DNA of 64,000 nucleotides. Origin: an uncultured Syntrophaceae bacterium. GTDB lineage: Bacteria > Desulfobacterota > Syntrophia > Syntrophales > UBA8958. The stretch lies in assembly GCA_964645835.1 (NCBI GenBank), contig CAZYDG010000052.1:23877-87876 (forward strand), given 5' to 3'. Position numbers and translations under genes: made by a program. Positions 1-64,000 of the stretch are shown piece after piece. A model generated the notes under the pieces. It was not told the DNA's origin. It saw only the letters and a list, made by a program, of their open reading frames with translations, and searched no databases. The first letter of the stretch is position 1. Every line of letters starts with the position of its first letter.

Positions 1-372
1 CAAAGCGGCCAATGGCTTTTTGAGGTATTGACTGCCACGGACGCCTGGATTGCAAAGAATTCCGATCTGGCGATCCGTCTCTTGAGAGCGCTCAACCAGG
101 CCGACATGTATATCTATCATAATCCGCAAGAGGCCAAGTTGATCGTTCGGAAACGTCTCAACCTGGACGCTGCATCCGTCGATAGGATCTGGTCGCGGAA
201 CTATTTTTCCCTCTCCCTTGACCAATCGCTCATTCATGCCATGGAAGATGAAGCGCGCTGGATGATCAGAAACAACATGACCACTGAAAAAACCGTTCCG
301 GATTTTACAAAATATATCTATTCCGACGGCCTCAAGTCGGTAAAACCGGAAGCGGTGAACATCATTCACTAA
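1..372 (+). CDS. ABC-type substrate-binding protein (NitT/TauT/SsuA-like), 3' part only
   Basis: C-terminal segment ending FSLSLDQSLIHAMEDEARW...PDFTKYIYSDGLKSVKPEAVNII, typical of SsuA/NMT1-like SBPs; cut by the window edge. Confidence 0.7.
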   Translation, partial: QSGQWLFEVLTATDAWIAKNSDLAIRLLRALNQADMYIYHNPQEAKLIVRKRLNLDAASVDRIWSRNYFSLSLDQSLIHAMEDEARWMIRNNMTTEKTVPDFTKYIYSDGLKSVKPEAVNIIH

Positions 373-385
373 AGGGAATTCGGTC

Positions 386-2683
386 ATGAGACTTCGTACA
401 CAATTCGTAATCACCATGCTTCTGTTTACCGTCGTCCTGGCCATTATTGCAGCCTCGGCAATCATCACCAATCAATGGGTGGCAAAGGTGAGAGAACAGG
501 ATAGAATCGCCGTGGATATCGCCAGGGGTGCAAGTGAACTCGGCTACTTGTCCAACGAGTATTTGATTTATCATGAGGGCCAGCAACTCCGGCGATGGCA
601 GGATAAGTTGGCTTTGTTTGCCAAACAAGTAAGCTCTTTGAATGTGGATAAGCCGGAACAGCAGCAACTTGTCGCGAATATAAAAACAAATCATAACCGG
701 ATGAAAGAGGTATTTGCCAGTGTGATAGCTTCACAGGAAAGCCGGTCCCGGAAGCAAAATGAAATCATCGATCCGGAGTATCTTCGTGTCTCATGGAGCC
801 GGATGGCAGTCCAGACGCAGGGGCTGATGTCGGATGCGCTGCATCTGTCACACTTGTTGGATCAGCAGGAGAGCCGTCTGAAGCAGGCACGGGAATTTCT
901 TCTCTATTCCCTTGTGGCTTTGTTCGGCCTGTTTATTTTCACTAATTATATGCTGACTTATCGCCGCATCCTGAAATCCATTGCAGCGTTGCGGGCCGGA
1001 ACCGCCGTCATCGGCGCCGGTAATCTTGATTTTGCCATCAGTGAAACTGAGGATAATGAAATCGGGGATCTCTACCAAGACTTCAACCGTATGACGACCG
1101 ATCTGAAAACCATAACCGCATCCAAAACGGACCTTGAGAGGGAAATTACGGAACGCAAGCGGGTAGCGGAGGAACTGGAACGGCAGCGCAAATGGCTTAG
1201 TGTCACCCTGGCGAGCATCGGTGACGCAGTGATTGCAACAGATACATCAGGGCGGATCACATTCATCAACCCCATAGCCCAGTCTTTAACCGGCTGGCAT
1301 GATGAAGAGGCCTTGGGCCAACCTATTCAGGGCGTTTTCCGGATCATTAACGAGGCAAGCGGCAAGCCGGGGGAGGATATGGTGGCACGTGTGCTCTCTG
1401 AGAAGGCCATTGTCGCCATGGCCAATTACACCGCCCTGATCTCCAGAGAGGGACGGCTGATCCCCATTGAGGACAGCGCTGCACCGATCAAGAAAAGCGA
1501 TGGCAGCGTCATCGGCGTCGTCATTGTCTTCCATGACGTGACCGAAAAGCGGAAGACTCAGGATGAGTTGCAAAGAAGCGAAGCAATGCTGCGAACCGTG
1601 CTGGAACAAATGCCTTCGGGTGTGACCGTCAGAGACGCCATTACGGGTACGCTCATCCTTTCCAACACTCATAGCAAGGAAATCTTAGGGCAACTGGTCG
1701 GCACCCCCGGACAATTTGCCGAATACCGGGGTTGCTATCCCGACGGACGTCCATACAAATCAGAAGATTGGCCGCTCAGCCGCTCCATTGCAACCGGCGA
1801 AATAGTATACGCGGAAGAGATATGGTGCGAACGGAACGACGGTACTAATATTATCATAAGCGTCAATTCAGCGCCCGTTCGCGATTCGCAAGGACAAATT
1901 GTCATTGGCGTCAGCATTTTTCAAGACATCACTGAGCGCAAACTGGCGGAAGATCGACTGGCACAACAGGCGGCACAACTTCAGGAACGCTCCGCCCAAC
2001 TTGAAGAAATCAATAAGGAGTTGGAGAGTTTCAGCTATTCAGTGTCCCATGATCTCCGTGCTCCGCTTCGCGCTATTGATGGATTTTCACGAATGATACT
2101 CAAGCACAAGGGCGCCAACTTTGATGAAGATACCCTGAGAAAATTTAATACCATCAGATCGAATGCCCAGCAAATGGGACAGCTTATTGACGATCTGCTT
2201 AATCTTTCGCGCCTGGGTAAGCAGGAAATGGCCCGTGCAAAGCTCAATATGGTTGATCTGGCCAACGAGGTCTGGAACGAGTTGCAGGTGATTAATCCGG
2301 ACGGGATCATGGAATTGACCGTCGGTGACATGCCATATGCCTATGGAGACAGGACGCTGCTCAAACAGGTGTATATCAATCTTCTGGGAAATGCCGTGAA
2401 GTTCACAAAAAGATCCGTCGTCCCGACGATTAATGTTGGGGGCTATTCCACCGGACCCGAGAATGTTTATTATGTAAAGGACAATGGCGCCGGTTTTGAT
2501 ATGGCGCATTATGATAAATTATTTTGTGTGTTTCAGCGTCTGCATTCTACAGACAATTATGAAGGCACGGGCATCGGCCTGGCGATTGTCCAGCGCATTG
2601 TCCACCGCCACGGCGGGCGAGTCTGGGCGGAAGGCGAAGTGGGTAAAGGTGCAACCTTTTATTTGACCCTACCGGGAGAATGA
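386..2683 (+). CDS. Membrane sensor histidine kinase (2 TM, HAMP, 2 PAS, HisKA, HATPase)
   Basis: H-box SYSVSHDLRAPL, N-box NLLGNAVKF, G-boxes DNGAGF and GTGIGL. Confidence 0.92.
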   Translation: MRLRTQFVITMLLFTVVLAIIAASAIITNQWVAKVREQDRIAVDIARGASELGYLSNEYLIYHEGQQLRRWQDKLALFAKQVSSLNVDKPEQQQLVANIKTNHNRMKEVFASVIASQESRSRKQNEIIDPEYLRVSWSRMAVQTQGLMSDALHLSHLLDQQESRLKQAREFLLYSLVALFGLFIFTNYMLTYRRILKSIAALRAGTAVIGAGNLDFAISETEDNEIGDLYQDFNRMTTDLKTITASKTDLEREITERKRVAEELERQRKWLSVTLASIGDAVIATDTSGRITFINPIAQSLTGWHDEEALGQPIQGVFRIINEASGKPGEDMVARVLSEKAIVAMANYTALISREGRLIPIEDSAAPIKKSDGSVIGVVIVFHDVTEKRKTQDELQRSEAMLRTVLEQMPSGVTVRDAITGTLILSNTHSKEILGQLVGTPGQFAEYRGCYPDGRPYKSEDWPLSRSIATGEIVYAEEIWCERNDGTNIIISVNSAPVRDSQGQIVIGVSIFQDITERKLAEDRLAQQAAQLQERSAQLEEINKELESFSYSVSHDLRAPLRAIDGFSRMILKHKGANFDEDTLRKFNTIRSNAQQMGQLIDDLLNLSRLGKQEMARAKLNMVDLANEVWNELQVINPDGIMELTVGDMPYAYGDRTLLKQVYINLLGNAVKFTKRSVVPTINVGGYSTGPENVYYVKDNGAGFDMAHYDKLFCVFQRLHSTDNYEGTGIGLAIVQRIVHRHGGRVWAEGEVGKGATFYLTLPGE

Positions 2684-7966: not shown

Positions 7967-8087
7967 AAGGATTGCTAGTTTCATTCATCAATTGTCAGAG
8001 GATAACGTAACCGAGTCCCTGACCGACTGGAACAATGAATTTTTATTCATTCGTTTATCTGAAGTTTTAAGATCTTTTTCACCCCCC

Positions 8088-8157
8088 TTGACAACAAAAA
8101 AACCATGATTATTTTTCTGCCAAAAACATGTAATGCCTCATAATATCAGCATGGTAG
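8088..8157 (+). promoter_or_regulatory. hsp20 operon promoter region (TTGACA plus conserved blocks)
   Basis: TTGACA at 8088; blocks TTGACAACAAAAAAACCATGATTATTTTTCT and ATAATATCAGCATGGTAG are identical in the inverted copy at about 59316-59384. Confidence 0.6.
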
Positions 8158-8197
8158 GCGGTATATTTATCAATAATAAATAGAGGAGGTTTTTGAT

Positions 8198-8638
8198 ATG
8201 TTTGGATCATCTATTGGGAGTTTCAGAATAGGGCCGTTTAGGGAACTGCAGCGTTTGCAGCGTGATATTAATCGTGCTTTCTCAGGACTTGATCCCTACC
8301 TTTCAGTACAGGAATATCCCGTGCTAAATATATGGGGGAGTTCTGATAACATCATTGTTACGGCCGAATTACCAGGTGTTAACCCCGATAAAATAAATAT
8401 TGCCGTAGTCAATGATAACCTGACTTTGAGCGGATCAAGGGATCCGGAGGTCTTAAAAGAAGATGAGGCAAGTCATAGGAATGAGCGTAATTTCGGCAAG
8501 TTTTCAAGAAACATAAATCTTCCATTCGGCGTGGATGCAGACAAAGTTGATGCCACTTATGAGAAAGGCATATTAACAATTTTTCTGCCGAGAGCAGAGA
8601 AAGAAAAGCCCAGGAAAATAAGCATTAAAGCATCGTAG
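8198..8638 (+). CDS. Hsp20/alpha-crystallin small heat-shock protein (A1)
   Basis: AELPGV, ERNFGKFSR, YEKGILTI; GGAGG SD. Confidence 0.93.
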   Translation: MFGSSIGSFRIGPFRELQRLQRDINRAFSGLDPYLSVQEYPVLNIWGSSDNIIVTAELPGVNPDKINIAVVNDNLTLSGSRDPEVLKEDEASHRNERNFGKFSRNINLPFGVDADKVDATYEKGILTIFLPRAEKEKPRKISIKAS

Positions 8639-8654
8639 AAAGGAGGTAATCAAT

Positions 8655-9059
8655 ATGTCAACCGAATCAAATGAGATGACTAAACGGGAAGTCCTTAACC
8701 CTGTTGAAACGGAAAGGACAAGAACACAAAAAGTCTATTCACCGCGAGTGGATATTTATGAGACTAAGGATACCATAGTTCTGATTGCCGATATGCCTGG
8801 TATTGACGAAAATACTGTGGATGTCACACTTGAAAAGAATATTTTGACGATAACGGGCGGTGTTCCGAACCCAAATTATGAAGGGTACTCAATTATTTAC
8901 TCGGAATATGAAACCGGTGATTATCAAAGGGCGTTTACAATTTCTGATGATGTGAATCAAGATAAGATTAACGCTACGGTAAAGAACGGCGTTTTAAAGG
9001 TAACCCTGCCTAAAGCAGAAAAAGTTAAAGCAAAGAAGATTGCTATTAAGGCAGCTTAA
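8655..9059 (+). CDS. Hsp20 small heat-shock protein (B1)
   Basis: PRVDIYE, ADMPGI, KNGVLKVTLPK. Confidence 0.93.
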   Translation: MSTESNEMTKREVLNPVETERTRTQKVYSPRVDIYETKDTIVLIADMPGIDENTVDVTLEKNILTITGGVPNPNYEGYSIIYSEYETGDYQRAFTISDDVNQDKINATVKNGVLKVTLPKAEKVKAKKIAIKAA

Positions 9060-9086
9060 TATCGTTTTAACTGAAAGGAGAAAAAA

Positions 9087-9593
9087 ATGGCTATTAGAGA
9101 TTTTTTGCCTTCGGTCTGGAAGAAGGGCGATCTAATTTCGAACAGGACAGAAGACCATCCTCTTTACTCCCTTCAGAAGGAAATGAACAGCATATTTGAC
9201 AATTTTTTCAGGGGGTTTGATCCGATATTTCTCGGAAGAGAATATGACGGTTTTGGAAATTTTTCTCCGTCAATTGATGTTAAAGAGAATAACAACGATG
9301 TTATAATCAAGGTGGAACTTCCTGGAATGGATGAAAAAGATGTAGATGTATCGCTTACTCAAAATATCCTGACAGTCAAGGGGGAAAAGAAGGAAGAAAA
9401 AGAAGATAAAAACAAGGATTTTTATCGTATGGAAAGACGATATGGCTCTTTCAGTCGTTCCATACCACTTCCGACAGGAATAAAGTCGGAGAAGGCTGAG
9501 GCGGTATTCAAGAAAGGCGTCTTAACGATAACCGTCCCAAAATCGGATGAAGCCAAATCGAAAGTGAAGAAGATTGAGGTAAAAACACAATAA
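9087..9593 (+). CDS. Hsp20 small heat-shock protein (C)
   Basis: PSIDVKE, ELPGM, ERRYGSFSRSIPLP, KKGVLTITVPK. Confidence 0.93.
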   Translation: MAIRDFLPSVWKKGDLISNRTEDHPLYSLQKEMNSIFDNFFRGFDPIFLGREYDGFGNFSPSIDVKENNNDVIIKVELPGMDEKDVDVSLTQNILTVKGEKKEEKEDKNKDFYRMERRYGSFSRSIPLPTGIKSEKAEAVFKKGVLTITVPKSDEAKSKVKKIEVKTQ

Positions 9594-9619
9594 CTTATAA
9601 ATTTCCGAACGGATCGTAT

Positions 9620-9645
9620 TCCTGCCGTTCTCAGGAGCGGCAGGA
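9620..9645 (+). terminator. GC-rich stem-loop after hsp20C
   Basis: TCCTGCCGTTC-TCAG-GAGCGGCAGGA; no strong U tract. Confidence 0.5.
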
Positions 9646-9647
9646 GT

Positions 9648-9815
9648 ACTGTTGTCGTTTCCGAAAGCTCAATAGTAAGAGTCTTTGGTACCGGAGAGAT
9701 TGTTTCAGAAATTATACCAGAGATTTGGCTGCTATTACGTTATAGTCTACACATGGAAGGTCATTATTCTGAACGCACCAATGACCGTTGAACAGTTATC
9801 AGCAAGGATAAATAG
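9648..9815 (+). pseudogene. 3' remnant of a diadenylate cyclase gene (paralog of 57680-58315)
   Basis: Translates TVVVSESSIVRVFGTGEIVSEIIPEIWLLLRYSLHMEGHYSERTNDR*TVISKDK*, matching the intact copy VVVSESSIVRVFDNGEIISEIIPEIWLLSRYSLHMEGHYSERSGDHLTVVSKDT*. Confidence 0.88.
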
Positions 9816-9967
9816 ATTTGACCAATTATCCATGAGATGGAGGATAAGAACCTAAAGACATATTACCATAACGCCCAGATTGGCAGCATTCCAAAGGCCG
9901 TTGCTAACCGAATGACAATATCCCGTTAAGTCACTTTCGGCAAAGAGTCATGATCTACTGGAAGACG

Positions 9968-10654
9968 CTACGCCCGATGCATGGCCAGGTGTTTTTCTAT
10001 ATAGGCCCGGACGCGGTCTTTGGGTTGAAAAATGCCGAAATGACCTTCACAGAGAATATCGGCCTCCAGATCGAGGAGTTTATGCATTGATTCACGCCAC
10101 TGCCCGATGTCCGATCCGAAAGCGGGCATAAATGGACCATGGATGTCCTGCCCGAAGAGGATGCGACGGCCGGCCCGATCCAGATAAAGTGAAATGGATC
10201 CCGGCGTGTGTCCCGGCGTATGGAGCCAGTGTATCTCTTCGGGCCCAAACTGTAATGTATCCAGTTCCCCCGTAAGCTTCATATCAACCCGTGTCGGCGG
10301 GAAATCGGTCTGATACCAGTTAGCTGCCGTCCGCACAGGATCGCCTTCTTCGATGGCCCGGGCATCGGCTTCGTGGATGACGATCCGGCAGTTGAAACGG
10401 TCGCGAAATTCGGAGGCTGACCCGATATGATCGATGTGGCAATGGGTAAGAATGAGGTGGGAAATCTTGTTCGGATCGAGGCCCGCCCCTTCGATGTTGC
10501 GGATCAATAACTTAGTACTTCCCCCGGCGCCGGAATCGATCATGACCAATTCACCACCAAAATCAATTACAAAGACTGTGGCATCATCGGAACGGGAGAT
10601 GCCCGAACCTCCGACCAAATAAATTCCCTGAGCTATCTGCTCTGCTTTTCCCAT
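9968..10654 (-). CDS. MBL-fold metallo-hydrolase
   Basis: THCHIDH, TPGHTPG, CEGH. Confidence 0.9.
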   Translation of the reverse strand: MGKAEQIAQGIYLVGGSGISRSDDATVFVIDFGGELVMIDSGAGGSTKLLIRNIEGAGLDPNKISHLILTHCHIDHIGSASEFRDRFNCRIVIHEADARAIEEGDPVRTAANWYQTDFPPTRVDMKLTGELDTLQFGPEEIHWLHTPGHTPGSISLYLDRAGRRILFGQDIHGPFMPAFGSDIGQWRESMHKLLDLEADILCEGHFGIFQPKDRVRAYIEKHLAMHRA

Positions 10655-55836: not shown

Positions 55837-56298
55837 TTACAGGCCGTCTTTGATAGCTTTCTTCTGATCGTCTGACAGGCCATTGTAAAGGGTCTCGAAG
55901 ACAGGGATGAACTTCTTGATGCTATTGGCATGTGCTTCGGCAAGCTGACCATAGAATTTGATTTCATCAACAGGGGTCCCGGCATTTGATTCACGTGACT
56001 TAATCCTGGCGAAGAGTGTTGCCATTGTTTGCGCATTCTGCCGCATCACCTCGGTCATGTTATTCCACAGTCCCTCCTGTTCCTGCGTGATCTTGAGCTT
56101 CTTATGAAGAGCTTCAATGCGTACCTCTAGAGATTTGAGGTCCGTCTCCTTAATACTAATTAAAGGCGCATCAATGCCTTCCGCTTTCAAAATGCCGGCA
56201 AGACCGATTATCACAAGGAACGCTGCCGCCACTCCCGCAAAAGCAGTTTTATTAGCAAACCTATGGGCAATTCTTTTCACAGTCTCTCTTTTTTCCAT
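55837..56298 (-). CDS. Spy/CpxP (LTXXQ) family periplasmic chaperone
   Basis: Signal-like segment, KLKITQEQ and LSDDQK motifs. Confidence 0.8.
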   Translation of the reverse strand: MEKRETVKRIAHRFANKTAFAGVAAAFLVIIGLAGILKAEGIDAPLISIKETDLKSLEVRIEALHKKLKITQEQEGLWNNMTEVMRQNAQTMATLFARIKSRESNAGTPVDEIKFYGQLAEAHANSIKKFIPVFETLYNGLSDDQKKAIKDGL

Positions 56299-56536
56299 GT
56301 TTAGTTCCCCAAATAGCATTTGCGATACGATTCATAAGCGGGGAGTTACTTTTGTGATGTTGATCATATACTCTTTTAATTTGTTATTATAGAACTTGGA
56401 CACCATTCACAATCAGGGATACTCTGACTTATGGATTCGAAAAGCCTGATGATAAACTTTAAAAATGCTGATTGATGTGATCGGAACTTCCTTATATAAG
56501 GCAGATAAGAAGGGAAATCTTCATGAGGCAGGTTTT

Positions 56537-56595: not shown

Positions 56596-56644
56596 GATCT
56601 CTTCGATAAGGAGTGTTACAATGGTTCATTTTTGGACCATGACC

Positions 56645-56890
56645 TTAGCCAGCAATTGAAAGAACAACGTAGTCGCCCTCATTGACTGCATCATACTCTT
56701 GAACGGGTTTATCCAGACTCTGGTTACTTGTCTTGATCGTCAACACACCGCCATCGGGCATGGCCTCCATGGCGTTGGCAACTAAATTGATAATCGTCTT
56801 GGTAAGATGCATGGGTGACCCCATGATGTTCAGAAGGTCTGTGTCGAGGTCATTCTTTGTCTTTAGTTTTGGATTAAATGACGAGATCTT
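56645..56890 (-). pseudogene. Histidine kinase HATPase fragment
   Basis: Manual translation LDTDLLNIMGSPMHLTKTIINLVANAMEAMPDGGVLTIKT...GDYVVLSIAG*; no start and no G-boxes. Confidence 0.8.
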
Positions 56891-56926
56891 TTAGTAAATG
56901 GCAATGCTGCCGGTCATTATCTGTCA

Positions 56927-57619
56927 TCAACTGACATCAGAAATCCGGAAAAGAACGGTTAAATGTATATTCCGGATTCCAAATTTCTCCAATGGAATCA
57001 TAACCACATGATCTACTTGTAGTCCTGGCGGAATGGCAACAGAAATTGGAACCTCTCCGACAATAGCACCCTCACCGGCGCACCGAAAACAATCATAGGG
57101 ACCAACGCCACCATAGCCTCTGCACGTTGGACAAATGGATCTCACAGGAATCATGATTCTTGCATTTCCGCCATATACAGTTTGTTCTTGTGTCAAATTG
57201 ACTTCAACTGTGAGATTCTGGAAGCGTCCTGATTTCGGCTGGGCAATGCTGGAGAAGTTAGACCAGAGCCAATCAAAGATTTCATCGAATGACGGAGTGA
57301 AGCTATTAAATGACCTTACCATGGAAATATCGCCAAAATCGTTTCCTCGCGTTTTCGGTATTAGAGGTTCCGGTTCCGGACGAGATGAGCGCTTTAAAGC
57401 AGGTTCAGACTTTACTTTAACTAAACTCTTTTCGTATTCACGCCGTCCATCGCGATTGCTTAGGACTGAATAGGCTTCCTGGATCTGCTGAAATGTATCT
57501 CTTTCACCAGAGTAATAATCCGGATGGAACTCTTTTACCAGACGACGGTAAGCTGCCTTAATTTCTTCAGCATTTGCGCCAGGGGCAATGCCGAGAATCG
57601 CATAATAACTCTTGGCCAT
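56927..57619 (-). CDS. DnaJ-domain co-chaperone (J domain plus one Zn-finger pair)
   Basis: YYAILG...FHPD; CPTCRGYG and CFRCAGEG; GGAGG SD. Confidence 0.9.
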   Translation of the reverse strand: MAKSYYAILGIAPGANAEEIKAAYRRLVKEFHPDYYSGERDTFQQIQEAYSVLSNRDGRREYEKSLVKVKSEPALKRSSRPEPEPLIPKTRGNDFGDISMVRSFNSFTPSFDEIFDWLWSNFSSIAQPKSGRFQNLTVEVNLTQEQTVYGGNARIMIPVRSICPTCRGYGGVGPYDCFRCAGEGAIVGEVPISVAIPPGLQVDHVVMIPLEKFGIRNIHLTVLFRISDVS

Positions 57620-57679
57620 AGTTAACCTCCTCGTCTTTATAATGTTTTAAGTTTTTATGCCGATGGACAATACCTAAAT

Positions 57680-58315
57680 CTATGTATCCTTACTAACTAC
57701 TGTCAAATGATCACCGCTTCGTTCAGAATAATGCCCTTCCATGTGAAGGCTATAACGTGATAGCAGCCAAATTTCGGGAATAATCTCTGAAATTATTTCC
57801 CCGTTATCAAAGACTCTTACTATTGAACTCTCGGAAACAACAACGGCGACAGCATCTGTTTCACGGGTTATTGAAGCAGCAGCCATGTGACGACTTCCAA
57901 GGCCCATGGGCAATGCAACGTTTTTTGACGTTGCGTTCAAATATCGACAAGCAGAAAGAAACTTTCCTTGGTCAGATACAATGAAGGCGCCATCGAGTTG
58001 AGCAAGTTCTTTAACCGTTTCTCGCAAATTGTGATCATCTATATTTAGAGATTCTTCAGAATGACCAATCAGCGGATCAAGAATCATGCACCTAGAATCT
58101 TGAAGGACCCGATCAGAATCTGAAACGACAAAGATTGTTCCAATTTTTCTTCCCTCTCTTTCTTCTCTAGCAATTTCAAGGGCAAGCAAAATGACCTTTG
58201 CCAGGGTGTCTAAATTGACAAGGCGATCAGCTGTTAGAATGCCTGCAAGTAAATAGCAGGTTGAATCCTTGATCATTTCAGCATCAGTTGCAACTGAAGA
58301 ATATTTAGTTACCAT
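57680..58315 (-). CDS. Stand-alone diadenylate cyclase (DAC/DisA_N domain)
   Basis: REGRKIGTIFVV, ELAQLDGAFIV (DGA), GLGSRHMAAASIT, VVSES; no TM segment or HhH domain. Confidence 0.88.
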   Translation of the reverse strand: MVTKYSSVATDAEMIKDSTCYLLAGILTADRLVNLDTLAKVILLALEIAREEREGRKIGTIFVVSDSDRVLQDSRCMILDPLIGHSEESLNIDDHNLRETVKELAQLDGAFIVSDQGKFLSACRYLNATSKNVALPMGLGSRHMAAASITRETDAVAVVVSESSIVRVFDNGEIISEIIPEIWLLSRYSLHMEGHYSERSGDHLTVVSKDT

Positions 58316-58379
58316 CAGATGCCTCTTTATCTTTCAATTTGCATAAATCAGTATTCCCATCGTTCTTACTAATAGCCAT
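58305..58379 (-). pseudogene. Remnant 5' end of hsp20C forming a 24-aa mini-ORF
   Basis: TGAAAGGAGAAAAAATATGGCTATTAG matches the SD and start of hsp20C (9073-9097); MAISKNDGNTDLCKLKDKEASDGN* overlaps the DAC ATG. Confidence 0.7.
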
Positions 58380-58406
58380 ATTTTTTCTCCTTTCATTTAT
58401 ACTTTA

Positions 58407-58811
58407 TTAAGCTGCCTTTATAGCAATCCTTTTTGCTTTCGCTTTTTCCGCTTTAGGCAGGGTTACTTTTAAAACGCCATTCTTTACCGTAGCATTAATC
58501 TTATCTCGATTCACATCATCAGAAATTGTAAATGCCCTTTGATAATCACCGGTTTCATATTCCGAGTAAATAACTGAATACCCTTCATAATTATGTTTCG
58601 GAACATCACCCGTTATCGTCAGAATGTTTTTTTCAAGTGTTACATCCACACTATTTTCGTCAATACCAGGCATATCGGCAATCAGAACCATGGTATCCTT
58701 AGTCTCGTAAATATCCACTCTCGGAGCATAGACTTTACGTGCTCTTGTCCGTTCCGTTTCAACAGGATTCTGTACTTCCCGTTTGGTCATCTCATTTGAT
58801 TCATTTGACAT
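58407..58811 (-). CDS. Hsp20 (B2), close paralog of 8655-9059
   Basis: Same length (134 aa) and nearly identical sequence. Confidence 0.93.
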   Translation of the reverse strand: MSNESNEMTKREVQNPVETERTRARKVYAPRVDIYETKDTMVLIADMPGIDENSVDVTLEKNILTITGDVPKHNYEGYSVIYSEYETGDYQRAFTISDDVNRDKINATVKNGVLKVTLPKAEKAKAKRIAIKAA

Positions 58812-58826
58812 ATCGATTACCTCCTT

Positions 58827-59267
58827 CTACGATGCTTTAATGCTTATTTTCCTGGGCTTTTCTTTCTCTGCTCGCGGCAGAATGATCGTTAATATGCCTT
58901 TCTCATAAGTAGCAGTTACTTTTTCTGCATCCACAGCGAACGGAAGATTAACGCTTCGTGAAAACTTACCGAAATTACGCTCATTCCTATGATTAACCTC
59001 ACCTTCTTTTAAAACCTCCGGATCTCTTGATCCGCTTAAAGTCAGGTTATCATTGACCACGGCGATATTTATAATATCGGGGTCGACGCCTGGCAATTCA
59101 GCCGTAACAATGACATTATCAGTGCTTCCCCATATATTCAGCGCTGGATATTCCTGTACTGAGAGATAGGAATCAAGTCCTGAGAAAGCACGATTAATAT
59201 CACGCTGCAAACGTTGCAGCTCCCTGAAAGGGCCAATTCTGAAACTCCCAATAGATGGTCCAAACAT
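58827..59267 (-). CDS. Hsp20 (A2), close paralog of 8198-8638
   Basis: Same length (146 aa) and nearly identical sequence. Confidence 0.93.
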   Translation of the reverse strand: MFGPSIGSFRIGPFRELQRLQRDINRAFSGLDSYLSVQEYPALNIWGSTDNVIVTAELPGVDPDIINIAVVNDNLTLSGSRDPEVLKEGEVNHRNERNFGKFSRSVNLPFAVDAEKVTATYEKGILTIILPRAEKEKPRKISIKAS

Positions 59268-59799
59268 ATCAAACACCTCCTCAATTTATTATTTATTTAG
59301 CGACAAAAATACATCTACCATGCTGATATTATACAGTATTACCCGTTTTCGGGAGAAAAATAATCATGGTTTTTTTGTTGTCAAGAGGGGATGAAGAAGA
59401 TCTTTTAAATTTTAGATTTTGAGACCAGAAGATCCCGTCTGCTAATGTTGGATTGTTATTTCAAAGATATCACAGGATCACGAGCACATACATAGCCTGT
59501 GATTTCTTTACCAAAGGGGGATGCGCATTGGATCAACCCGTAATCGTGGCGTTGGTTATTCAGATATTGAAGGATCAGCCAGTCCTTGTATGCATGGCCG
59601 GGAGTTATACCGGAAAAAATAAACACATGTCCTCAATTTGACATGACAACAAATCTTTTCGATCATTTCACGATGATGGGCAGGCGAATAATATGGTTTC
59701 TTGGGCGAAGTATCGAAAAGCAAAACCATATTAGACAGGGATTCACAGCAAACGCTATGACCTGTGATGGCCTGGAAGATTAATGGCGGTATCCAAATT

Positions 59800-60889
59800 C
59801 TAAAGGGACTGTTCTGCGCCTTCCTCATCGATATGCTTGAGGTTCGTAATGTCAATCATGACTATGTGGCATTCCTTTTTATCATTGGATGATCGGGCCT
59901 GTAGCCGTACAAAGATTGATGGACGATACTCGTTCGGAAGCATAACATCGCAGTTCTGGATGAGATCGCTGTTAAATGCTTTTCTCAAAAATGCGTTGAA
60001 GACAGGATAATATTCCTGTGAAACATGTAGCTGGAACCGCTGGCCGGTAAGGGGGTATCCCCCCCCCAAGGAACTCGGCAGCGGCCTGGTTGAACCGTAC
60101 GATGTTCCCTTCGGGGTCTAGGGAGAGGTAACAAATCGGGGCGAAATCATAGATATCACGGTACATATCCATGATCGCATTGGTCTTTTGGTGGCACTGT
60201 GCAAGTTCTTCGTTTTGCAACTCTAGCTCGATCTGGTACGTATGCAACTATTGTAAAAGTTCCTGAGTATCCGCTCCTAATTCGCGCGACCATGAGGCCG
60301 CCTCGATCACTTTCAGGTGTTCTTGTGCCCGTCGCCGCAGTTCGGCGTTTCGCTCGCTGTCCCTATCTTCTCTCTCTCGGAGCATTTTGACCAGCTTCTT
60401 GCGCGCATCAACCTCCGCTTTCCGCTCCGCAGTTCTGACCTTGTCCTTCTCTTTCAGGGCTCTATGAGCTTCCCGAAGTTTCTCTTCCGCTTCCTTGCAT
60501 TGTCTATGCTCCTCTGCTTCCAACAGGGCTCTCTTGACGGCGGGCACAAGCCGCTGCTGGAGTCGGGTTTTCAGGACATAATCTTTCGCCCCGTGAGTCA
60601 GGATGTCGATGGCACGGTCTTCCGTGACCGCTCCGGTGACCAAAATGAAAGGGGTCTCGGGGCATCTTCGTTTCGCTTCGGTAAGGGCCAAGGCGCCATT
60701 ATACTTAGGCAGGTCATAGTCGGACAGGATAATATTAGGGCAAAAGTTCAGAAGCGCCTGAACATATTCTTCTTCAGTCTCCACCACTTTCAGGGTTAAG
60801 GCCAACCCTGCCTCTTCCAGTTCAAATTGAACCAACTCAGCATCAGCGGGGTTATCTTCCAGAATAAGGGCACGAATGGGCTCCATCAC
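59800..60889 (-). pseudogene. Degraded REC-PAS signalling gene
   Basis: REC LILEDN...SDYDLP; in-frame TAG at 60248-60250 inside LLQ*LHTYQIELELQNEEL; frameshift in G/C runs near 60055-60067; ends after the PAS domain. Confidence 0.8.
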
Positions 60890-61353: not shown

Positions 61354-64000
61354 TTAGAAGGCTGCCACAATTGTTGTCGGACTGGTCACATCGATTTGAC
61401 TCCATGTAGTACCGTCCCATTTCGAGAGACCGGTTGCCCCATAATTCGCATACAATATCGAACCTGAGGCTTGCATGCTTGTCGGAACAGCGGCGTTGAT
61501 CTTAGTCCATGCAGTGCCATTCCACTGCCAGAGTCCGGACGCTCCGTAGTCCGCATACATCATGGATCCCGAGGCCACCATACTAACCGGTGCAACCGTA
61601 TTGATCTTGCTCCAGGCAAAACCATCCCATTTCCAGAGCCCGGCAGTCCCGAAGTCCGTATACAACACCGAATCTGTGGCCAGCATGCTCGTCGGTCCGG
61701 CAATGTTAATCTTACTCCAAGCATTACCGTCCCATTTCCAGAGTCCGCTTGCCCCATAGTTCGCATACAGGGTAGAACCTGCAGTCAACATGCTGGTTGG
61801 TGCGGCCGTATTTATCTGACTCCAGGTTCCCAGATCCCATTGCCAGAGGGCTCCTGCCTTAACCGCATAGAGCAGACTGTTCACATTGAAGACAATCGGC
61901 CGCATCAGGTCATACTCCTCATGGCCCAGGATGTGGCAATGCCATGCATATTCATGACCGAAATTGGTCATCGCATTGACCGTGGAAGTGGGTACACCTG
62001 TCACCGGGTCAATCAGCATGATTGTGGCATTCACCGGGGCAGTCGGATCCAGGGGACGAACGCTCTCGGGCATTTCAAAAGGAACTACAGGAAGTGTCGG
62101 TCTCATGCAACAATCACATCCTGCAAACGATTCATCTGGACTGTTTCCTTCCAGCCCATTTCGTCGGGATCGGGCGGTAGGATCTGCCCGGTCCAGTCGA
62201 TACGGTTGACTACCTGCACATCAGTCAGGTGAAAATGGATAGGATGGGTGTCAATACCGTTGTGAGTAATCTTCCAGAGCTGGACCTGGTCGTTACGAAG
62301 ATTTTCCGTTGATTTTGAGGCATACTCCAAGGGGATTGAAGGCGTCAATCCATTCGGCGCCTGGGTGCCGAGCATGGCATTGATCCTGCCATAGGTGGCA
62401 TCAAAGCCCTCATTGACCGATTTTCCCTGGAGGGGTATGGAAATGCCGTTTACCGTCATCGCCGTATCCGTAAGTTTCGCAAAAACATTGGCCGGGACTA
62501 TGTGCGCGGGCTGTGACGCGTTGTAGGCGGTTGTCAGCGCCGTCGTCAACGCAGGCAGGGTGACAGGGGTGATCGTACCGGGTGTTGCTGCCACCACGCG
62601 GAACTGCATCATGGTCCGGGTATTCGGGCCGAATCCGGCCAGGGTCGAAGGTGCGCCGCCGATGGGCGTTTGATCCGGGATGCCCGTGAAATAGTCATAA
62701 CGAGGATCGCCTCCCGGCAGGGCCGCGGGTGCGTCGTTGTAAAGGATGATGTTCGTACCGGGAACCACTCCGGTGAAATCGATGATAACGTCCGCCCGTT
62801 CCGCCGGCTGAAGCAGAAGAGTTTTGCTGGCAATGTTACCAACGCCGTCAAAGTTGATCGGAGTGTTGGGATACACGACAGGCGACGGCAGGAAACCGCT
62901 TTCGGTACCGATTCGGATCATCTGGGGGCCTACCTTGGTCGGATCAGGGACACCCCCTATCCTGCCGTCCGTCGGCCAGGTCTCGGGCCAGCACCCTATC
63001 GCGGGGTTTGTTACCTGTGTTGCCGGTGGAGCAGGCGGCACACCGGCCGGCGTTATATAGTTGGGAGTGCCCACCGTAACACCGGCGGCGCAGATGGGTA
63101 GGGTCGATAATGCATCATGGGGGATCGCGGGGAGCATGGCGACTTCCGTACCTGTAACCAAATTGACGGTGGGAGCCGTCGTATATCCGCTGCCTGCGTA
63201 TACAAGCGTTACGCCCGTAACGGCGCCGGCGGCGTTAATCGTTGCTGTCGCCTTGGCCGCTGTTCCTCCAGCTCCTAAGACGCCCCCCGTGAAGACCACG
63301 GCAGGAGCCACCGTATAACCGGAGCCCGCAACCCCAAGCGTGACCGTAAGGGCACCGGTGCCGGCGACGAGTGCGGCTGTTGCCGTGGCGCCGGTGCCGC
63401 CATTGGCTTGATACAATTGCAGGTCTAAAGACCGGTCATTGGCGGCGTTCAGGACGCGGAAACGATAGGCCTTGGCCTCCACAGTCAGATAAGGATAGGC
63501 AGCACCGTTGACGACAGGTGTATCCATGAAAGCTTCCGGTGTGATGGATAATACCGGCAATGCCAGGGTAGCGGGCGATGGGGGCCAGACCCAGGGACCA
63601 TAATCCCATCTTCCGGCCGGGTTCAATCCATTGGCCGCTGTAATTTCCTGGCTCGGCTCATAGACATGGGGCATCCATAGATCTCCGGTTGCACCCATCC
63701 CTAGGGGAACAGCGCCACTCCACAGGGTATCCTGCCCGGTCGTGCTGACCGGAGTACCCACATTCGCAGGGACAAAGGTCTTATCCTGAATGACAAGAGG
63801 AATTCCGTATTTATATACCGCCGGCATCAAAGCCCCGGGAATGCTCCCTGTGGCTCCCGTGCCGATCAATGTATCCTCTGCCGGCTCCACAATCAGATAG
63901 CCCGCTGCTTCACCCGCATAGACGTTGAGTCGGGTGATTCCGTGAGTATGATCGTGGTAGAACATGAGTCGGCTGCTCTGCTCGTTGCTCCAGAAATATG
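61354..64000 (-). CDS. Large multicopper oxidase (CotA/MofA-like) with C-terminal repeats; split by a 1-nt frameshift near 62105; 5' end outside the window
   Basis: FYHDH, HPIHFH and HCHILGHEEYDLM copper motifs are spread over ORFs 62103-63965 and 61354-62106; GCATGA should read GCA ATG. Confidence 0.85.
61360..61880 (-). repeat. Five tandem 105-bp (35-aa) coding repeats
   Basis: The Trp codon of GLW(K/Q)WDG recurs at 61416, 61521, 61626, 61731 and 61836. Confidence 0.85.

Follow-up and report, generated by a model that had tools for sequence, protein, structure and literature searches.

In this study, we analyzed a 64,000-nucleotide (nt) stretch of DNA from an uncultured Syntrophaceae bacterium (contig CAZYDG010000052.1, positions 23,877 to 87,876), referred to below as the window, in which a predicted diadenylate cyclase (DAC) gene lies among genes for small heat-shock proteins (sHsps, encoded by hsp20 genes) and a J-domain protein. 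The presence of a DAC in an hsp20 operon, which we observed in a minority of loci, hints at a tie between cyclic di-AMP (c-di-AMP) and protein-folding stress. An earlier interpretation of the same DNA, made from its letters alone (the sequence-only reading), had described four closely spaced and co-oriented genes, and all four were indeed found on the minus strand where it had placed them. From the upstream end, these are hspA (58827..59267; 146 amino acids [aa] from its ATG; Pfam PF00011, E 1e-18, 67.7 bits against a cut-off of 20.8), hspB (58407..58811; 134 aa; PF00011, E 3.7e-20, 72.4 bits against the same cut-off), the gene for a predicted sensor-less DAC of the DacZ type (57680..58315; 211 aa; PF02457, E 8.6e-23) and the gene for a mini-DnaJ protein (56927..57619; 230 aa). 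They are separated by spacers of 15, 91 and 60 nt, respectively. The list of open reading frames (ORFs) starts hspA at a GTG at 59276; the ATG at 59267 is the more likely start, because it is preceded by a ribosome-binding site (RBS; GAGGAGG) and the paralogous gene described below also starts there.

A consensus scan detected a sigma-70-type site, TTGACA-16-TATTTT, upstream of hspA at 59384-59357. The 32-nt promoter core to which it belongs (CTTGACA-N16-TATTTT; 59354..59385, minus strand) has exactly two copies in the window, one upstream of each of two hsp20 loci, where 0 occurrences are expected by chance. No further copy was found in the genome beyond these two loci. Moreover, a CTTGACA -35 element with a TAT(A/T)TT-like -10 element is kept before hspA in three relatives from the same family or order. 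Scanning of the sequence between hspA and the DAC gene revealed no terminator-like site, and a weak hairpin lies within the 3' end of the DAC gene. An operon-like unit of four genes is thus supported by the short spacers, by the lack of a terminator-like site from hspA to the DAC gene and by the retention of the promoter in both loci and in relatives, and the four genes would be cotranscribed. The same gene order was observed in contigs of independent public runs. One public contig of 1781 nt covers 56783-58563 with 0 differences, and one run from a second study has a contig that passes across the joint specific to this locus (locus 2) at about 58380. A public contig with a loose end at 58381 continues from there into hspC.

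The third protein had been taken for a stand-alone DAC with DGA and RHxAA motifs. In agreement with this, its translation contains LDGAF and GSRHMAAAS, and the DAC domain (PF02457) scores above cut-off (80.6 bits against 27; residues 48-173) as the sole Pfam domain of the protein. It is preceded by approximately 47 residues, in which no sensor domain was detected with Pfam. Residues D108, G109, R142 and H143 of the motifs D108-G109-A110 and R142-H143-M144 were invariant across 60 homologues, and M144 was conserved in at least 90%; the third position of the RH(R) motif is M, not R, throughout the family. The best NCBIfam match was the DAC half of DacZ (NF041371; E 7.9e-39, positions 123-268 of 270), with a whole-protein score of 133.6 bits, which lies below the DacZ cut-off of 430. 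The models of CdaM, CdaA, CdaS and DisA matched the protein far more weakly than that of DacZ. An AlphaFold2 (AF2) model based on the alignment of 60 homologues had a mean pLDDT of 82.1, and the Foldseek matches listed for it were all DAC enzymes (DacA/CdaA, CdaM and DisA; probability 1.00), the best being 6gyw_B (E 8.3e-7, TM score on the target 0.64). Judged by its motifs, its best match to DacZ and the DAC fold of its model, the 211-aa protein is very probably an active DacZ-lineage cyclase, with c-di-AMP as its presumed product, yet it misses two defining features of DacZ. The closest DAC class is that of DacZ (Haloferax volcanii, NF041371, and the bacterial proteins with DacZ_P and DAC domains), with which the protein shares a conserved DGA motif; the same motif is likewise kept in the active Haloferax enzyme, according to passages of PMC6741144. 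In contrast to the 211-aa protein, DacZ has a PK_C-like N-terminal domain (DacZ_P/DacZ_A), and the 211-aa protein differs further by an extra conserved C-terminal tail and by its hsp20 operon setting.

Homologues of the DAC with lengths of 189-227 aa and identities of 59-77% are spread over several phyla, their source labels including Thermodesulfobacteriota, Anaerolineae, Elusimicrobiota, Lentisphaerae and others. Of 5253 candidates with 116-370 aa, 4932 reached E<=0.001 in the homologue search, other DAC classes included, and the best 120 of these 4932 matches were all DAC-only proteins. A 35-residue C-terminal extension (IIPELWLL...TVxSK) is kept family-wide and is absent from a sensor-bearing paralogue encoded in the same genome; AF2 modelled this tail as a beta hairpin with lower confidence. 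The extension could point to a chaperone-gated cyclase, to which the sHsps or the mini-DnaJ would bind, for example via the I/L-T-V tail, and which would be inactive until unfolded proteins titrate these chaperones. Indeed, the DAC tail resembles, in a by-eye reading, the C-terminal I-x-I/V tails of the sHsps, which are visible in the alignments as ISIKAS and IAIKAA. However, the tail is equally conserved in many family members without an hsp20 neighbour, and we consider such gating improbable and a minor rival of the explanation proposed below. The predicted complex of hspA, hspB and DAC (score 0.01, mark 0.32) carries no weight for or against a contact.

A further alternative is that the protein serves against phages as a PanS-like (PanDA/Panoptoo) decoy cyclase, or that it makes another nucleotide such as cUMP-AMP (cUA). 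Minimal DACs without a sensor domain, a trait that PanS shares with the 211-aa DAC, act in defense and make c-di-AMP or cUA, according to passages of two reports (PMC13640721; 10.64898/2026.08.10.743927). In contrast, PanS proteins are described in PMC13640721 as having approximately 150 aa, occurring mostly in Pseudomonadota and lying in >90% of cases beside a 2TM-beta effector. They thus differ from the 211-aa DAC in size, taxa, DAC lineage and neighbours, the latter being HSP20 and DnaJ proteins here. Moreover, the DAC domain is closest to DacZ, and none of five proteins submitted to the PADLOC models gave a match, with a 2023 library (PADLOC-DB) that predates PanDA. We regard a role in defense as very improbable and likewise as a minor rival.

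The second hsp20 locus of the window (locus 1) lies on the plus strand and begins with the exact second copy of the 32-nt core (8087..8118). This is followed by hspA2 (8198-8638; PF00011; 89% identity with hspA), hspB2 (8655-9059; PF00011; 90% identity with hspB), hspC2 (9087-9593; PF00011) and a dead DAC-gene remnant with the 55 codons of the 3' end (157-211; 9648..9815), which was identified by tblastn and DNA alignment. Such a remnant behind the other hsp20 copy had been claimed from the sequence and was confirmed by the tblastn match, in which 9648-9809 (plus strand) corresponds to DAC residues 157-210 with 81% identity (E 7e-24). The remnant has one internal TGA, and the DNA alignment extends through the shared stop codon. 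DNA homology of the two loci, which differ by approximately 12%, begins about 141 nt upstream of hspA. Locus 2 in turn contains a remnant of hspC (58305..58379, minus strand), recognized by alignment with locus 1, which comprises an RBS plus ATGGCTATTAG and opens a 24-codon ORF. In the 91-nt stretch that separates hspB from the DAC gene, locus 2 aligns with locus 1 from the hspB stop codon over the RBS into hspC2, of which the first 11 nt are kept, and diverges thereafter. Given that locus 2 retains a stub of hspC and locus 1 a stub of the DAC gene, the ancestral unit was promoter-hspA-hspB-hspC-DAC; it was later duplicated, after which locus 1 lost most of the DAC gene and locus 2 lost hspC. 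The earlier proposal that the DAC-hsp20 linkage predates the duplication therefore holds within this genome. The 24-codon ORF has a strong RBS (AAAGGAG) and ends 8 nt after the start codon of the DAC gene, so that translation of the DAC gene could be coupled through it to the genes upstream.

An hspA-hspB-hspC cluster in the same order was present in two genomes of the same family and in one of the same order, with identities of 59-68% for hspB and 54-57% for hspC. No DAC or J gene lies downstream of this triple in any of the three relatives, which speaks against a conserved system of the kind that the sequence-only reading had proposed. Since relatives carry the triple hsp20 operon without a DAC, the hsp20 operon is old and vertically inherited, and the DAC and mini-DnaJ genes were added to it in this lineage. 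A comparison of 1.5-kb flanks gave no matches between either locus of the window and the hsp20 locus of the relatives.

The recurrence of the DAC-hsp20 pairing was assessed in 98 other DAC loci. These comprised 16 same-phylum and 2 other-phylum orthologue loci with flanks of approximately 6 kb, searched by phmmer with the chaperones of the window, and 80 metagenome loci with a median length of approximately 4 kb, which were found with the family alignment; a contig scan with the single DAC protein yielded 2 loci only. We observed hsp20 genes beside the DAC gene in 9 of the 80 metagenome loci, in four gene orders, and thus in 9/98 loci within 527 kb of flank overall. The arrangements are DAC-hspA-hspB-hspC (L089 and L090), hspA-hspB-hspC-DAC (L091), hspB-hspC-DAC (L117), hspC-DAC (L135), DAC-hsp20 (L108), hsp20 upstream of the DAC gene with a PAS kinase between them (L126), hsp20 genes convergent on the DAC gene (hspC-hspB-hspA; L098) and two hsp20 genes at 1.7 kb from the DAC gene (L096). 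In this genome, hsp20 loci number 4 per 3.7 Mb, and two genomes of 6.9 and 2.5 Mb have 2 matches each, corresponding to approximately 0.3-1.1 loci per Mb in the three genomes. With this density over 527 kb of flank, well under 1 DAC-hsp20 locus is expected by chance, compared to the 9 observed. The sequence-only reading had held that its proposal would fail if the linkage were confined to this genome; the pairing in several arrangements elsewhere shows that it is not. The four-gene set hsp20-hsp20-DAC-dnaJ did not stand as a system, since it is not conserved: a J gene accompanies the DAC gene only in the window and, convergently, in 1 of the 9 linked loci (L089), where the encoded mini-DnaJ shares 29% full-length identity with that of the window.

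In the DAC tree, which has 100 rows, the ten linked rows (window included) all fell into one part of 31 rows. The linkage label required at least 5 changes, compared to a mean of 9.7 after shuffling, and none of 500 shuffles was as low. Many of the unlinked rows in this 31-row part stem from contigs of <2.5 kb. The DAC-hsp20 linkage thus recurs in one branch of DACs and is missing from most of the family. Further products of the linked loci are FtsH (L091), an HtrA-like protease (L135), DUF6178 (L089 and L090) and RelA/SpoT (L096). At L098, where hspC-hspB-hspA are convergent, a gene for a 159-aa TrkA_C (RCK_C) protein (318-797, plus strand) lies 34 nt before the DAC gene. TrkA_C (RCK_C) is a classic c-di-AMP-binding fold. 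The short DAC also has other neighbours that recur by clade. In one clade, a cNMP-binding and HATPase_c kinase lies directly upstream of the short DAC (L144:3634-5016, L115, L137, L141, L149 and L166); another has a pair of PsiE and a PAS kinase (L093, L096, L099, L100 and L126), and a third has a convergent STAS-domain gene together with outer-membrane/RND efflux genes (L140 and 7 others).

The last gene of the unit had been described as encoding an HPD J-protein. The translation indeed contains FHPDY, and the J domain was detected with PF00226 (E 5.1e-19). The mini-DnaJ consists of this J domain, two CxxCxGxG motifs (CPTCRGYG and CFRCAGEG) and one beta domain; the full architecture of a type I DnaJ, with a G/F region, four CxxCxGxG motifs and two C-terminal domains, is not present. 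Consistently, TIGR02349 gave 122.6 bits, compared to a cut-off of 377.2, over model positions 1-172 of 354. The C-terminal part has homologues of approximately 205-260 aa in other families and none in the order of the window. In 8 of 29 loci with a mini-DnaJ homologue, hsp20 genes lie at <=1.5 kb from it, and two of the loci (L082 and L083) contain co-oriented hspA-hspB-miniDnaJ operons without a DAC gene. Full-length homologues with 29-30% identity adjoin hsp20 pairs elsewhere. The two or three tandem HSP20 genes are reminiscent of sHsp holdase and J-protein modules (IbpAB with DnaK/DnaJ/ClpB), and by analogy the HPD J-protein could hand sHsp-bound clients to Hsp70. Unlike in these modules, the J-protein is truncated here and a cyclase gene lies between the chaperone genes.

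Longer relatives of the DAC offer a second connection. Of 199 matches among proteins of 371-2000 aa, 120 were listed as the nearest relatives, and 119 of these are fusions with DSBA and Thioredoxin_4 domains. The DAC part of these fusions, which measure approximately 384 aa (P0121-P0240), is 55-65% identical to the 211-aa DAC over 75-97% of its length, and the domain order is Thioredoxin_4/DSBA, then DAC. In the two that were scanned (P0180 and P0121), the thioredoxin-fold domain is N-terminal, where other cyclases hold their sensor. One relative, P0167, has a C-terminal phosphoribosyltransferase domain. No fusion of HSP20 or DnaJ with a DAC was present among the 120 listed long relatives. The DsbA-like fusions thus appear, from their domain content, to be a second tie of this DAC to protein-folding and redox stress; unlike them, the 211-aa DAC has no redox domain, and its link to stress would be made by the operon and not by fusion. 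Full-text searches of the literature turned up no paper describing a link of a DAC to hsp20 or to DsbA; they did not cover Galperin 2023 (22 DAC families), which may list the DAC-only and DsbA-DAC architectures. In the searched passages of two 2026 preprints on minimal DACs, neither heat shock nor chaperones are mentioned.

The genome encodes two further DACs, one of 300 aa with DacZ_P and DAC domains and one of 485 aa with DACND, DACNH and DAC domains. The 300-aa paralogue bears the DacZ_P domain with E 1.8e-14, and its DAC half is 48% identical to the 211-aa DAC. The gene for the 485-aa protein lies at L003:466-1923 (plus strand; contig C21 of this genome, G000); its DGA motif is kept and the RHR position reads ARY. 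Because of this degenerate RHR motif, the 485-aa protein may be inactive or a receptor. In addition, a gene of the PgpH type (7TM-7TMR_HD) and two genes for TrkA_C proteins were found, which are probably the remaining parts to be expected of a c-di-AMP network. No c-di-AMP riboswitch (RF00379) was found in this genome, which is 90.8% complete.

A Spy/CpxP chaperone had been noted further downstream on the same strand. An LTXXQ (Spy/CpxP family) gene is present there (55837-56319, minus strand; PF07813, E 4.4e-11), at a distance of 607 nt from the J gene. Since this gap contains a histidine-kinase fragment, the LTXXQ gene probably forms a separate unit outside the operon. Sensor-kinase fragments in fact flank the operon on both sides (56645-56824 and 59800-60247, both on the minus strand). 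The downstream one shares 90.6% identity across 85 aa with the middle part of a 639-aa frame of contig C91, and the upstream ones are approximately 38-40% similar to the PAS N-termini of other kinases. That they were one gene split by an insertion was unsupported, as their best matches are different kinases. In one public run (X1), extra contigs pile up at 56638-56905. Beyond the operon, a 250-aa ORF (61354-62106, minus strand) has about six repeats of the form G-L-W-K/Q-W-D/N-G...W-S/T-K-I-N and overlaps the end of a long ORF of >620 aa with an HPIHFHL motif (62103-63998, minus strand), which we take to resemble a multicopper oxidase.

At roughly even confidence, we favor the explanation that the gene of a sensor-less DacZ-lineage cyclase was added to an older hsp20 operon and that the enzyme is made from a small-heat-shock promoter, so that stress raises c-di-AMP. 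The DacZ-lineage DAC would have lost, or never had, its N-terminal sensor domain, and together with the mini-DnaJ gene it would have joined, in this lineage, the older order-wide hspA-hspB-hspC operon. Being appended to the hsp20 operon, its gene would be expressed from the small-heat-shock promoter. As no sensor is present in the enzyme, its output would depend mainly on its amount, and stresses that induce hsp20 would lift c-di-AMP beyond what the sensor-bearing DacZ_P-DAC enzyme sets. The nucleotide would then act on its usual targets, such as the RCK_C/TrkA_C potassium-transport regulators, and thereby tie folding stress to ion and osmolyte balance; both this downstream step and the induction of the DAC by stress are inferred from the setting of the gene. 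A similar logic is known from CdaS of Bacillus, an accessory second cyclase whose contribution is set largely by the timing of its expression, and the 211-aa DAC may by analogy be such an expression-timed accessory enzyme. In contrast to it, CdaS has an N-terminal autoinhibitory helical domain, belongs to another DAC lineage (its model, NF038328, matches the 211-aa DAC with only E 1e-5) and serves the sporulation programme. More tentatively, and with doubts that outweigh our confidence, one sensor-less DacZ-type branch may have been recruited repeatedly to proteostasis units (operons with hsp20, FtsH, HtrA or mini-DnaJ genes and DsbA-like fusions), with folding stress as an input into c-di-AMP, either by transcription alone or by sHsp gating.

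The main rival of the transcriptional explanation holds that the neighbourhood is incidental and the DAC gene a mobile housekeeping gene, so that an ordinary constitutive cyclase that moves horizontally landed behind hsp20 clusters in a few lineages, with no coupling to heat shock. The spread of the short DAC is patchy, as this would predict. It was found (E <= 7e-58, frames of 191-278 aa) in 16 of 400 sampled same-phylum genomes, none of them from the order of the window; other genomes, including those of the family and order of the window, had only the form of approximately 300 aa, and both forms occur together in G000 alone. In a second phylum, the orthologue was present in 1 of 401 genomes, the seed genome. 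The neighbourhoods vary as well, with 89/98 loci lacking hsp20 and most family members lacking a chaperone neighbour, and both hsp20 loci of the window are AT-rich, as for insertion-prone or foreign DNA: their GC content is 0.39-0.41, compared to 0.50 for the window, and the 2-kb bins 8001-10000 and 58001-60000 (0.397 and 0.398) are the most AT-rich of the window (approximately 0.50). However, mere chance placement hardly accounts for 9 loci where hsp20 density predicts well under 1, for a pairing kept in four different gene orders, for its persistence through a duplication and approximately 12% divergence, or for the further proteostasis genes in the same loci. We therefore consider an incidental neighbourhood unlikely, although it is the most serious of the alternatives.

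Several observations nonetheless weigh against stress-controlled synthesis from the hsp20 promoter. Within approximately 6 kb of the DAC gene, an hsp20 or J gene was found in 0/16 same-phylum and 0/2 other-phylum loci, and 71 of the 80 metagenome loci had no hsp20 or J gene in the flanks examined, half of these loci being under approximately 4 kb. Other neighbours of the DAC gene are as frequent as hsp20 or commoner, such as histidine kinases (17 loci, partly a generic match), efflux, STAS and DUF924 genes; outer-membrane and RND efflux genes, PsiE and a metallophosphoesterase also recur. The well-supported branches of the DAC tree are compatible with a single origin of the linkage, and the confinement of all linked loci to one DAC subclade implies few independent linkage events. 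Where a genome has no DacZ-like match besides the short DAC, the latter may be the housekeeping cyclase. Within locus 2, a promoter-like site before the J gene (57706-57677) could drive this gene separately. Finally, no known heat-shock control element was found at the two loci by Rfam search, folding of the 5' untranslated regions and by-eye inspection of the promoters. The Rfam search (E<=1) gave only three chance-level matches and no RNA thermometer, and the folds of the 5' untranslated regions of the two loci were no more stable than those of shuffled sequences (z 0.52 and 0.07). A sigma-32 or sigma-54 promoter and a CIRCE or HAIR operator were rejected by eye, since neither the spacing nor the -10 region fits.

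In many bacteria, c-di-AMP is essential or toxic. To our knowledge, the control of its synthesis is largely obscure, above all outside Firmicutes and Actinobacteria, and we know of no description of folding stress as an input among the known classes, which respond to osmotic conditions or potassium, DNA integrity, sporulation, the cell wall or phage. High c-di-AMP is reportedly associated with heat resistance in Lactococcus (Smith et al. 2012, as cited in PMC6108528). A sensor-less cyclase in a heat-shock operon would be a simple control point, namely transcription from a stress promoter, and points to a link between proteostasis and potassium or osmolyte homeostasis. If one branch of DACs was indeed recruited repeatedly to proteostasis units, folding stress would be a stress input into c-di-AMP that is new to the known classes. 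The branch, around which hsp20, FtsH, HtrA and J-protein genes and DsbA-like fusions occur, represents a defined protein family.

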